From: Octopus vulgaris
Taxonomy: Eukaryota
Reading direction: 5' to 3'
Length of the DNA stretch: 64,000 bases
Assembly (NCBI GenBank): GCA_951406725.2
Contig: OX597830.1
Span: 23,188,001 to 23,252,000, forward strand
Position numbers and translations under genes: made by a program. Positions 25,499-49,018 of this stretch are shown here, piece by piece. Numbering within the stretch: the stretch's first letter is position 1; each line of letters opens with the position of its first letter. The notes under the pieces were generated by a model. That model was given only the letters and a program-made list of their open reading frames with translations, had not been told where the DNA came from and did no database searches.

Positions 25499-25542
<44 letters not shown>

Positions 25543-25544
<2 letters not shown>

Positions 25545-25842
25545 AAACAAGAAGTCATACTACCTAACAAATAAGAAGAAGAAGAAGAAGAAACAACAAA
25601 AGCTATAAAACAAATGAAATCCAAACTAAAACTAGAACAGCAACAGACCTTGATAAAATGATGGCAAGAAAAGCCCCTTCATGGCAAATACTGGGCTAAA
25701 CTAAATGCAAAAGAAATAGACAGAGAAAAATCCCAGCAATGGTTGACAAGCTCAGGACTCAAAGCAGAGACTGAAGGATTTTTAATTGCAGCACAAGAAA
25801 CTACCAAAAACATATAATGAAAAGAAACATAACAAGTGACTG
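25543..25842 (+). mobile_element. Dong/R4-clade non-LTR retrotransposon fragment (post-RT region, disrupted)
   Basis: Translates to ...K*WQEKPLHGKYWAKLNAKEIDREKSQQWLTSSGLKAETEGFLIAAQ/NYQKHIMKRNITSDC; the LHG...WL..GL..ETEGF..A.Q pattern is typical of R4/Dong; starts immediately after (AAT)n. Confidence 0.8.
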
Positions 25843-26749
25843 TTATATCACCACAATATCACTCTCTGCTAAATATTGTATCCTAAACATATCTCTTTCT
25901 CTTCACCTTTTACTTCTGCAAACTTTTTAACCACATAATGAGTATTCCTTCCCCACCTGATTGCATGTCGTTAACACTTCACTTTCCTCTTTTTCTCTTG
26001 CCATCTTCTCTTCTTCTTCGCCTCTACCTTCAGCTGACCACATGACACATTTGGTCTAAGTGTATTACTATTAATCATCTTTCTCTACTACTTCCTCTCT
26101 TCTTTCTTCACCCCCACCCATCTTGCTCTCTCTCATTCTTACTCCATCTCCACAACTAACTACAGTACTACAGTATAACAGGCGGATGATCAAACAAATT
26201 ATTATATAGATCAGCTGACCCCGTGCTGTCAAAAAAGACAGCTAATTGTAGTATTTTACATATAAGGTACAAAATAAGGAACATAATAATCACAGATACA
26301 AACATTCACATACTTTCCTTGTACACGCACACACATACTCACACAGAATTGAAACGCTGTTTGAATTTTCTTTTCAGAGTTGAATGTTCACCATCCCACT
26401 TCCATTGCATACACACACACACACAAACATTCACATGACTCCCTTTTACATACACACACACACATATACTCCTGCAGAATTGAAAAGCTGTTTGATTTTA
26501 TTTCCCACTGTATAACTTCCATTATCCCACTACCAAGTTTGCCATCACCCCTTCCTTTCTCATTCATATGTTGTGATGGAGAAAAACACAAGAATATCAT
26601 TATAGTAGATTACTGCAGTGAGCTGGCAGAATCGTTAGCATACAGGAGAAAATTATCAGCAGCATTTTGTGTCTCTATGTTCTCAGTTCAAATTAAACTG
26701 AGGTTGACTTTGCCTTTCATCCCTTTGGTGGGGGTCAATGAAATAAATA

Positions 26750-44960: not shown

Positions 44961-45167
44961 ATGCTTAGTTAAAAAAAAATTAACTAAAAAATTTGTGACT
45001 GAGATTAAAAAGATCCCACCACTGTAAACACTAACCCCATCACCATTATCATCATCATCATCATCAATACCACCATGACTACCAAAATCTTTACTACCGC
45101 ATGTCCCCTATGACCACCACCACCACAACCAATAATACCACTACCACTGTCATCATTACAACCACCT

Positions 45168-45393
45168 ATTTCTTTACTACCCACAAGGGGCTGAACACAG
45201 AGAGTACAAACAAGGACAGACAAACAGATTAAGTCGATTATATCGACCCCTTAACTGGTACTTATTTAATTGACCCTGAAAGGATGAAAGACAAAGTCGA
45301 CCTCTGCGGAATTTGAACTCGGAACGTAACGGCAGACGAAATACGGCTATGCATTTCGCCCAGCGTGCTAACATTTCTGCCAGCTTGCCGCTT
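45168..45393 (-). mobile_element. SINE family B, full length
   Basis: Reverse complement of 2044-2275. Confidence 0.88.
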
Positions 45394-46384
45394 TACAACC
45401 ACCACCACCACCACCTAATACCATCACTACAACTACTATTGGGACCACGACCACGACCACTACTACCATCATCACCACCGTTATTGCAACCACCACCACC
45501 ACCACTACCACTACCCCACCTCTACTCAAAACACCAAGACATAAAAGTTCTGTGACATTATAATTATATTAGTGACTGGTAACAAGAGACGGGGACATGG
45601 ATAGACGGGGGTGGGGATGTGTAAGATGTTGAAAAGTATGTGTGGGGGAGGAGAAAGGGGGAGAGTGTATGTGTGTGCCTGTGTGAGCAGGGATAGTGTG
45701 TGTATGTGTATGTGTGAGTTAGTGTGTGAGAGTATATGTGTGTGGGAGGAAAAGTGCATGTGTGTGTATATATGTTAATGTGTATACATGTTTGTCTGTG
45801 TGTGTGTATATATATGTTAATGCATATGTATAAATTTGTGTTAACGTGTGTGTATACATGTTAATGTGTATGTATAAGTGTGTGTGCATGTGTAAGCTAA
45901 TGTGTGTGTGTAAGCTAGTGTGTGTGTGTGTGAGAGAGAAAGTGCATGAGTGTGTATGTGTGTGTGTATAGAAGTCAGTGTGTGTGTGTGTGTGTGTGTG
46001 CATGTGGATGAGTATGTGAGAGAGTGTGTATACATGTGTTTAAGTGAGTGTGTATGAGTATGTCTGAGAGAGTGTGTACGTGAGCAAGGGCCGTGTGTGT
46101 GTATGGTTAAGTGTGCGTATGTATATCTGTAAATGAGAAAGAGAGAAAGAGAGCATTTATGGTGTAAGCATGTATGCATATGTAGGGGTTGTGAGTTTAT
46201 GTAGTGTATAAGGGAGCGCCAGAGTGTGGTGGTGGTGAATATGATGGCTTTAACCCTTTAGCATTTAAACTGGCCATATCCAGCCAAATTATTCTTCCTG
46301 TTTATATTAGAACTGACCAGATCCAGCCCATCACACCTACCCTACAATGCCATTCTAAAAATATACAATCACATGCTTCACCTT

Positions 46385-46885
46385 ACCAGCACTTGTGCTG
46401 GTGGCATGTGAAATATTCGAGCGAGGTCGTTGCCAGTGCCGCTGGACTGGCTCCTGTGCAGGTGGCACGTAACAAGCACCATTTGGGCGTGGCCGTTGCC
46501 AGTACCACCAAACTGGCCCTCATGTTGGTGGCACGTAAAAGCACCCACTACACTCTCAGAGTGGTTGGCTTTAGGAAGGGCATCCAGCTGTAGAAACTCT
46601 GCCAGATCAGATTGGAGTCTGGTTCGCCAGACCTCAGTCAAATCGTCCAACCCATGCTAGCATGGAAAGCGGACGTTAAATGATGATGATGCTGATGATG
46701 GTGACATGTAAAAAGCACCCACTACACTCAGTAAAGTGGTTGGCACTAGGAAGGGCAGCCAGCCACAAAAACGAAGTCAAAACAGATAATGGAACCGGAT
46801 GCAGCCCCTGGCCATGCCAGGTCCTGTCAAGCTGGCCAAACCATGCCAGCATGGAAAATGGATGTTAAACATTGATGATGATGGA
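46385..46885 (+). mobile_element. Two tandem family C copies
   Basis: Two GGTTGGC..TAGGAAGGGCA...CCATGC.AGCATGGAAA...(GAT)n units. Confidence 0.85.
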
Positions 46886-46960
46886 TGATGGCATCATGGA
46901 GATCCTGAAGTCATGAAATAATACAGGATTAATTCAAAACAATGAGAGTAAGTAAAATAC

Positions 46961-47268
46961 AGTTCTATATTTAAGAGATGAGGAATTATGCACATTATTT
47001 ACAGTTGACGGATATTTGTCCTCATCTTGTTTGTTGGTAACACAATATTTCAGCTGATATACCCTCCAGCCTTCATCAGGTGTCTTGGAGAAATTTTGAA
47101 ACTGGGTTCTCATTCCTAAGGTATTTTTTGATATCATTATTATTATTATTATTATTATTATTCAATTCACTACCTGGAATAGAACTCGGAATCTTGGAGT
47201 TAGCAGCCTGTGCTCTTAACCACCACAACAAACAAGATGAGGACAAATATTCATCAAATGTAAATAAC
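46961..47268 (-). mobile_element. TSD-bounded element with a tRNA-like segment, (AAT)n, a hammerhead motif and a PLE-style inverted end
   Basis: 13-bp TSD GTAAGTAAAATAC at 46948-46960 and 47269-47281; inverted arms at 46991-47036 and 47226-47271. Confidence 0.8.
47039..47084 (-). ncRNA. Minimal type I hammerhead ribozyme-like motif
   Basis: GACAC-CUGAUGA-A-GGCUG-GAGGGUAUAU-CAGCU-GAAAU-AUU-GUGUU. Confidence 0.7.
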
Positions 47269-47569
47269 GTAAGTAAAATACGTTTGATAGAAGAATCTGA
47301 ATACTAAAGGGTTAAGATATTGGTATAGGTGGGGGCCAGAAGAGATTGATATAAAACAGGGTGGTGTTAGTGGTTATCATCATCACCATCACCATCATTT
47401 CACAACCACTCTCCAATCTGCACCAGGCCCCAGACTATATTGTCTAGGTTTCTATGGCTGGATGCCCTTCCTAATGCCAACCACTCCACAAAGTGTACTG
47501 GGTTTCTTTATATTAGAACTGACCAGATCCAGCCCATCACACCTGCCCTACAATGCCATTCTAAAAGAC

Positions 47570-48586
47570 ATCTGGCATGGATGTCTTTCATGTGTAACTG
47601 GCACAGCTGCCTTTCACATCTCACCAACATGAATGTCTTTTATACATTGCTGGCACAGGTGCTTTTCATGTATCACCAACATAGATGTCTTTTACATATA
47701 TCACTGGCACACGTGCCTTTCACGTGTTACCAACATGGATGTCTTTTACATGTTGCCGGCACAGGGGCCTTTCATGTCTCACTGGCAAAGTACTTTCCAT
47801 GAGTCACTTGATACAGGTGCATTCCACGTGTCACTTGGCACAGGTGCATTCCATGTGTTACTTGGCACAGGTGCATTCCACATGTCACTTGGTACAGGTG
47901 CATTCCACATGTCACTTGGCACAGGTGCATTCCACGTGTCACTTGGCACAGGTGCATTCCACGTGTTACTTGGCACAGGTGCATTCCACGTGTTATTTGA
48001 CACAGGTGTATTCCACGTGTTACTTGGCACAGGTGCATTCCACGTGTTACTTGGCACAGGTGCATTTTACACGTGTTACTTGGCACAGGTGCATTCTATG
48101 TGTTACTTGGCACAGGTGCATTCTACATGTCACTTGGCACAGGTGCATTCTACGTGTTACTTGGCACAGGTGCATTCTACGTGTTACTTGGCACAGGTGC
48201 ATTTTACACGTTACTTGGCACAGGTGCATTCCACACGTTATTTGGCACAGGTGCATTCCACACGTTACTTGGCACAGGTACTTTCCACGTGTTACTTGGC
48301 ACAGGTGCATTCCATGTGTTACATGGCACAGGTGCATTCCATGTGTTACTTGGTAAAGGTGCATTCCAGTGTTACTTGGCATAGGAGCATTCCACGTGTT
48401 ACTTGGCACAGGTGCATTTTACACGTGTTACTTGGCACAGGTACATTCCATGTATTATTTGGCACAGGTGCATTCCACATGTTACTTGGCATAGGTGCAT
48501 TCCACGTGTTACGTGGCACAGGTACTTTTCACGTGTTACTTGGCACAGGTGCATTCCATATATTACTTGCACAGGTACTTTCCACT
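47570..48586. repeat. 27-bp minisatellite (GGCACAGGTGCATTCCACGTGTTACTT), about 29 homogeneous units from about 47800, preceded by degenerate units
   Basis: Direct inspection; 9-aa periodicity in the overlapping ORFs. Confidence 0.93.
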
Positions 48587-48740
48587 GCTAAAAAAGACAG
48601 AATCAAGCTGTCTGCATTTTAAAACCGAAAATTAGAAAGCAAAATTTCCATAAACCTTTTCCCCCATTTCGCCCACCCATCACCACATCACTCCCAAATT
48701 TTCACTTTTACCGTCACAGTCAACGCATTCACAATGGCGA

Positions 48741-48803
48741 GGCAAGACTTCTACCCGTCCCATCCCAGGGGGTATTTTGAGGGGGATGGGCAGAAGTCTT
48801 GCC
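48741..48803. other. Isolated strong hairpin (pre-miRNA-like)
   Basis: GGCAAGACTTCT-A-CCCGTCCC pairs with GGGATGGG-C-AGAAGTCTTGCC: 20 of 21 positions paired, including one GU. Confidence 0.6.
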
Positions 48804-49018
48804 CACATGTGCATACACACACACACACACATGGCCAAGTCTGAAAAACAAAAACATTTGTACACAGAAAAAAAAACCTACACATACATACACACAAGCT
48901 TATATATATATATATATATAAGAGGAAGCTTTATGAAAATAGACAAAAGACGAAGGCAGGTGGAAAACAAACAAACAATTGTATTAGTATGGCGCTCAGG
49001 AAATATAAATAAAACAAG

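Follow-up and report, generated by a model that had tools for sequence, protein, structure and literature searches.

A decayed Penelope-like element insertion in Octopus vulgaris, and its family with a tRNA-derived head that may serve as a Pol III promoter

The insert at 46948-47281 of the window (the whole 64,000-nucleotide stretch of Octopus vulgaris DNA analysed here) is almost certainly a fragment of a Penelope-like element (PLE). The locus is ordinary, a decayed PLE insertion of a common kind, and the family behind it is a variant PLE with a surprising possibility attached: its terminal repeat begins with a tRNA-derived head which, as we are slightly inclined to think, would function as an RNA polymerase III (Pol III) promoter and make the template RNA. 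A protein-coding mobile element copied from a Pol III RNA would be unexpected. By the prevailing view, Pol II transcribes autonomous non-LTR retrotransposons and Pol III transcribes SINEs (PMC10886601; here and below, cited papers stand for those parts of their text that were accessible). A coding PLE using a tRNA promoter would break this split. It would also provide a route to SINE-like repeats without a separate non-autonomous lineage, turn the translation of Pol III RNA into a testable matter in a natural, very abundant element, and mean that thousands of short copies would be mis-annotated as SINEs. Should the Pol III reading fail, what is left would be an ordinary PLE with a captured tRNA fragment.

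The anatomy of the window copy agrees in outline with a preliminary description of this DNA: a perfect 13-bp direct repeat (46948-46960 and 47269-47281) encloses 308 bp, and on the minus strand a tRNA-like segment, (AAT)n and a hammerhead can be read in that order. Its parts are the following.

46948..46960, plus strand: TSD at the element's 3' (tail) end, from direct-repeat comparison
46961..46991, minus strand: PLE tail, 31 nt, present in the main arm only, ORF codons ~41-51
46961..47113, minus strand: codons 1-51 of the 830-codon ORF found in the autonomous element, open here, with the ATG at 47113-47111
47084-47039, minus strand: minimal type I hammerhead, predicted from sequence and pairing
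47084-47080 / 47043-47039, minus strand: hammerhead stem I
47079-47073, minus strand: hammerhead core CUGAUGA, then an extra A
47071-47067 / 47056-47052, minus strand: hammerhead stem II, then GAAA and the palindromic stem III
between 47044 and 47043, minus strand: predicted hammerhead cut
47136..47162, minus strand: (AAT)9 microsatellite from head to ORF start, its length differing among copies
47163..47226, minus strand: tRNA-derived head, 5'-truncated within the A box
47187-47176, minus strand: B box, with one change at a conserved position
47206-47200, minus strand: anticodon-like loop
47226-47220, minus strand: A box remnant, half of the box being lost
47226..47270, plus strand: inverted 5'-truncated second arm, ending at the tail-less site
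47269..47281, plus strand: TSD copy adjoining the inverted arm, from direct-repeat comparison

The inverted end copy that had been pointed out earlier is indeed there: 45 nt at 47226-47270, 91% complementary to 46992-47036 (47 nt and 94% when set against the family majority sequence). Positions 46961-47113 are 94% identical to ORF nt 1-158 of the family majority. The tail, a concept taken from PMC11167929, would be the interval 46961-46991 between two reverse-transcription start sites. On the minus strand, the first 5 nt of the tail-side TSD (46956-46960) match the element's own continuation, a microhomology. At a distance, the insertion is flanked by an inverted pair of 66 nt and 79% identity (46720-46785 and 47435-47500), seemingly part of other repeats in 46500-46900 and 47400-47500.

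The CTGCTAA loop and the AAUAUU palindrome on which the preliminary description dwelt are present in this copy, but they do not characterize the family, which has CTACTAA and AACGUU. Both are changes of the window copy, which also has U in place of C11.1, and its palindrome duplex is predicted at -0.2 kcal/mol against -3.5 for the 6-mer of the family. These changes in ribozyme and boxes would reflect CpG decay rather than compensation, and the insert is likely a dead copy, shortened as well as decayed.

Recognition of the hammerhead rests on features of the family, because the window taken by itself gives weak signals. The window contains one instance of the bare core motif, for 0.16 expected, and 15 of 100 window shuffles reach as many; the region folded alone does no better than shuffles (z -0.11); and an Rfam scan returned no hammerhead among its 14 matches over 45000-49000 at E<=5, and no tRNA either. 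ARAGORN likewise found no tRNA anywhere in the window. In the family, sequence and pairing give 5-bp stems I and II, an extra base after A9 and a palindromic stem III, so that the PLE-type minimal hammerhead proposed at the outset finds its match. The A and B boxes are intact in the family majority, again as anticipated, while the stems of a cloverleaf are not. Compared with host tRNAs of six isotypes at 30 loci, the head scores best with Arg (64, 61), then with Ala (58); tRNA-Arg is the best-scoring candidate donor.

An autonomous element stands behind these fragments. Searching the 2.8-Gb genome with the insert gave 4,936 candidates at first look. Its last 28 nt have 4,414 exact matches (the reversed control has none) and, as 15 of 28 independently found copies match this 28-mer exactly, tailed copies should number, very roughly, 8,000 or more. 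Endonuclease-like coding sequence lies directly 5' of the head in 3 of the first 30 loci. Conversely, 29 of 30 loci retrieved with the ORF end run on into the head (one of the 30 is the query, three on C31 are near-duplicates and several have internal deletions), with RVT_1 frames upstream of this end (RVT_1 E 1e-10). The tail passes straight into the ORF at five loci (L160, L163, L164, L171 and L174), the mark of a partial-tandem pLTR, and the head is found upstream in two of 25 copies of the ORF 5' part (L163 and L174), both of which start there. A PLE sharing the 3' end of the insert, which the preliminary description had advised looking for, therefore exists. Built by column (depth at least 9, median 28), its majority ORF is a single open frame of 830 codons, with the ATG just after (TAA)n (47113 in the window) and the stop ~30 nt before the next head. 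The unit thus runs head - (TAA)n - ATG - hammerhead - tail - RT - endonuclease-like part - stop - next head, the hammerhead lying within the first 25 codons, and hammerhead and tail together within the first 51.

By the features tested, all of them read from sequence, the family appears to be an EN+ PLE of Penelope/Poseidon type. GIY-YIG and CCHH motifs were read by eye at the C-terminus of the protein; two C-terminal fragments were unmatched in Pfam, and three homologs carry PF01541 (GIY-YIG). Among 138 homologs at E<=1e-20, the closest relatives (P0001-P0011) have 52-74% amino acid identity, one cluster consisting of barnacle (Amphibalanus amphitrite) proteins at ~59%, and an 836-aa protein of Anolis carolinensis, not equated with PAc, is 37% identical over 808 aa. 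Sequence searches of the PDB returned no PLE structure. The best 30 loci for a distant PLE protein all belong to this family (88-94% to the majority, one at 84%), which dominates the Penelope-type content of the host genome; a second PLE family, sought as a control, is absent from these 30 best loci, and no older sister subfamily was found starting from the 84% copy.

The way copies are inserted also bears the signature of PLEs. Of the 4,414 tail matches, the 90 that come first by position on C1 were taken as a sample; 54 of these copies have an inverted arm reaching the 3' part of the body, and 50 of these arms stop 24-38 nt short of the main arm, which is the one-sided PLE tail. Among these 54, 29 have TSDs of at least 9 bp, a length reached at 5 of 450 control placements, and the window copy is typical of this pattern. 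Tail, inverted arm and TSDs, together with an RT ORF sharing the pLTR, bear out mobilization by a PLE, as first proposed. In 30 copies (L067-L153) the start of the TSD overlaps the element's continuation by 1.07 nt on average, versus 0.53 in shuffles, with some overlap in 14 of the 30, reaching 4 nt at most among them and 5 nt in the window copy, a modest hint of pairing between target and template at priming. Copies end at the tail sites and in the head; none of these ends is set by the predicted ribozyme cut. Some copies lie within local or segmental duplications and share their flanks (L352/L353; L046/L054/L055).

The preliminary description had also seen in the insert a separate non-autonomous retroposon, and here it finds no support: head, hammerhead and tail are all part of the autonomous element, and no diagnostic split separates short copies from coding ones. 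It is highly improbable that the short copies form an independent, non-autonomous SINE, driven by Pol III and mobilized by the PLE. To be sure, many of them are SINE-like and have TSDs, and copies starting at the head are far commoner in short form. A 31-mer of the head has 1,639 exact matches in the genome, and among 30 head-anchored loci (two pairs of which are not independent) the ORF end is found upstream in three and lacking in 27. Yet the PLE body follows in 24 of these 30, the other six breaking off in (TAA)n, and no other body was seen downstream of the head, so that the joining of head and hammerhead, first noted at one locus, holds across the family. When 30 short copies starting at the head were compared with 47 ORF-linked pLTRs, only 4 of 252 columns differed at p<0.05, fewer than the ~13 that would arise by chance. 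The two groups share their segregating variants, T/A at the free core position N7 among them, and also their two-site haplotypes, one of which is more frequent among short copies (6 of 15, with 1 of 11 among ORF-linked ones, small numbers). No separate non-coding SINE lineage emerged. Finally, in the Anolis element the template must include ORF sequence lying past the main start site (PMC11167929), and solo copies would partly lack it.

At their other end, copies converge on the head. In the 90-copy sample 76 arms reach it; 62 stop there, and 14 continue into an ORF end. Pooling 61 arms gives 42 plain ends, 11 mirror junctions and 8 arms that run into the ORF; 40 of the 42 plain ends fall at or inside the position 14 nt before the A box, on which the mirror junctions are centred. 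The upstream edge of the copies thus lies 13-14 nt before the A box, with ends spread over ~25 nt, and very probably the template's 5' end is at the head. The spacing at which Pol III starts transcription fits a 5' end placed 13-14 nt before an A box. A fixed start does not name the polymerase, however, since in D. virilis the start of Penelope is likewise within the pLTR, where a LINE-like promoter without a TATA box is used (PMC2377424).

A different account of this edge invokes a 24-nt hairpin (-9.1 kcal/mol) that overlaps the cluster of 5' ends: reverse transcription of a longer read-through RNA would stall, or fold back, at this structure 5' of the A box. The mirror junctions, centred on the hairpin, and the scatter of ends over many nucleotides rather than one base would suit such a process. 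Still, we hold it to be improbable. Stalling should leave ends at the stem's 3' foot, whereas most ends are inside the stem or at its 5' side; a mere two of the 42 plain ends go beyond the 5' edge; and the loss of T-runs, considered below, would go unexplained. As a separate matter, recurrent internal deletions (L098, L049, L032 and L041) remove most of the head and join the A box or its 5' flank to (TAA)n, a configuration also met in RNA reads (L163:1008).

T-runs stop RNA polymerase III. The 2.8 kb of majority ORF and pLTR contain no sense-strand run of at least four T: the ORF (2,493 nt, 21.7% T) has 13 T3 runs, no T4 run and 27 runs of at least four A, where synonymous shuffles have 3.0 T4 runs on average (P=0.028). 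The absence of T>=5 from the ORF alone is uninformative (P=0.61), and the ORF is equally devoid of G>=4 runs. In real copies of the family the density is 0.5-0.63 per kb: 29 of 30 loci, spanning 43.1 kb, hold 27 T4 runs, and 103 segments, spanning 134 kb, hold 67. For controls, PLE frames were taken from metagenome contigs; of 80 loci, the 76 with at least 900 aligned nt were used. They carry 686 T4 runs in 126 kb; the 39 with 20-26% T have 194 in 59 kb (3.28 per kb), and the 22 with 19.5-23.5% T have 52 in 32.6 kb (1.6 per kb). Unlike the family, 73 of these 76 segments contain T4; the three T4-free ones are all shorter than 1.5 kb, and none of the 18 spans of at least 2 kb is T4-free (minimum 2 runs). 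Host LINEs show 19 T4 runs in 10.5 kb (15 segments, 20% T; 1.8 per kb), 8 of them T5; pieces of an abundant LINE reverse transcriptase that served in this comparison lie at 25542-25849 on the plus strand of the window and at L061:7869-8999. With a rate of 1.36 per kb, the Poisson chance of finding no run in 2.8 kb is 0.022; it falls to 0.006 with 1.8 and to 0.0001 with 3.28. The absence of T4 seems to go beyond chance, at P about 0.01-0.03 for one family, with the caveat that a majority sequence is cleaner than single control copies.

Some figures temper this result. One site gains a T4 in 7 of 66 copies and another in 6 of 70; these copies are perhaps minor source lineages still spreading. 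No shared variant creates T4 in 68 columns, a count of low power (16 of 434 synonymous changes to T would do so). The ORF protein is low in Phe, 17 of 104 homologs being as low or lower, and its closest relatives, compared as proteins, are equally low. As for the control loci themselves, ARAGORN found no tRNA in 60 of 80 scanned. One of them, L247 (2518-2571, 4930-4970), combines a minimal hammerhead having the same AACGTT palindrome with a separate A/B-box repeat; this box pair, considered as a PLE head, was rejected, as the repeat it belongs to is a separate one, with T-runs after it, and lies ~490 nt upstream of a truncated PLE ORF.

Pol III as maker of the template is suggested by the 5' edge before the A box combined with the loss of T4, and the Pol III drive of the preliminary description is a serious candidate. 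An RNA made by Pol III carries no cap, and cutting at the predicted hammerhead site would take away the ATG, two points that count against it, as do the absence of G4, the low Phe of relatives, the sites gaining T4 and the hairpin at the 5' cluster. The main competitor, which we hold to be unlikely without dismissing it, is an ordinary Pol II PLE whose pLTR once picked up a piece of a tRNA or SINE, now at the Pol II start or serving as such, and where the lack of T4 is due to chance or follows from coding that is rich in A and poor in Phe. A capped RNA would suit an ORF that has to be translated; the T4 test goes no further than the P value above, and minor lineages may bear T4. Penelope is a precedent for a start and internal promoter within the pLTR (PMC2377424), and Kojima holds that, where TRIMs bear tRNA sequences, their autonomous partners have to be transcribed by Pol II, Pol III being weakly processive (PMC10886601). 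On the other hand, both boxes are intact in the family majority even though the cloverleaf stems are not, the edge of the copies sits where Pol III would start, none of the 18 long control PLE spans is T4-free, and host LINEs show no T4 avoidance.

If Pol III does make the template, the following cycle can be proposed. Initiating 13-14 nt upstream of the A box and encountering no terminator, transcription would cross the ORF and reach the next repeat. AT-rich DNA would be nicked by the PLE protein, which, by analogy with PAc, would prime at either tail site: priming at the first would produce SINE-looking copies of ~280 nt, such as the window copy, and priming at the second, copies bearing the ORF. 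Insertions would often be made of a pair of arms in head-to-head orientation. The same source elements would yield the short copies as by-products, these having no lineage of their own. The protein might perhaps come from a Pol II read-through RNA, the Pol III RNA being the template; selection would act against T4 whichever RNA is translated, because ORF-bearing templates must be transcribed to the far tail. As to the ribozyme, cleavage in PAc is protein-assisted and dispensable for insertion in vitro (PMC11167929).

Placed among known systems, the family has much in common with other PLEs. It shares with PAc and Penelope a single ORF for RT and a putative C-terminal endonuclease as well as a partial-tandem pLTR (PMC11167929, PMC2377424), with PAc a hammerhead overlapping the ORF start (PMC11167929), and with the PLEs of Anolis and D. 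virilis a tail of 30-40 bp, an inverted truncated arm and a transcript start in the pLTR (PMC11167929, PMC2377424). It departs from Penelope in that the pLTR begins with tRNA-derived A and B boxes instead of having a LINE-like TATA-less promoter (PMC2377424). Its ribozyme is the minimal PLE hammerhead, with a 5-bp stem I and an extra base between 9 and 10.1, the G10.1-C11.1 pair and palindromic 15.2-16.2; the family shows no difference from the published type, and the window copy has lost C11.1 and the strong palindrome (PMC4209133). Most genomic motifs of this minimal kind come from truncated PLEs (PMC4209133).

On the features tested the family is neither a SINE nor of retrozyme or SM-alpha type. 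SM-alpha also combines a Pol III-type promoter with a hammerhead in a retroposon, but it is non-coding, often tandem and freed by cleavage (PMC6765202), whereas here a coding PLE ends at tail sites. Retrozymes are likewise short, hammerhead-bearing and related to pLTRs (bioRxiv 10.64898/2026.07.22.740005; PMC7229834); they are defined as tandem arrays (bioRxiv 10.64898/2026.07.22.740005), while copies of the family are dispersed, with TSDs and inverted arms. In the latter study neither 'tRNA' nor 'Pol III' occurs, and the same is true of the accessible text of PMC13343379. TRIMp3 elements (Cassandra, Helenus, Ajax) have a Pol III promoter derived from a small RNA inside their terminal repeat, yet they are non-autonomous LTR elements (PMC10886601) and the family is an autonomous PLE. 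No tRNA-headed or Pol III-transcribed PLE was found in the accessible literature; Repbase, Dfam or supplements may hold the family, perhaps as a SINE. Ohshima and Okada reportedly described in 1994 three octopus SINEs with tRNA-derived heads, OK, OR1 and OR2, the last two of which are said to derive from tRNA-Arg. The head of the family, best matched by host tRNA-Arg, resembles OR1 and OR2 in this respect, in a comparison made by description. OR2 has been described as a CORE SINE (PMC4758252).

RNA from a related organism (three RNA-seq runs, with 9,289, 7,469 and 6,897 reads aligned) covers the segment from head to tail at a depth of hundreds to thousands, and the ORF at less than ~20 beyond its first bin. 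Both strands are equally represented, as if the libraries were unstranded, and there is no site where many molecules start or end. Such a pattern is expected of passenger transcription of many copies, and it is silent on the polymerase. The junction between ORF end and head is present in this related organism as well, in loose read ends.
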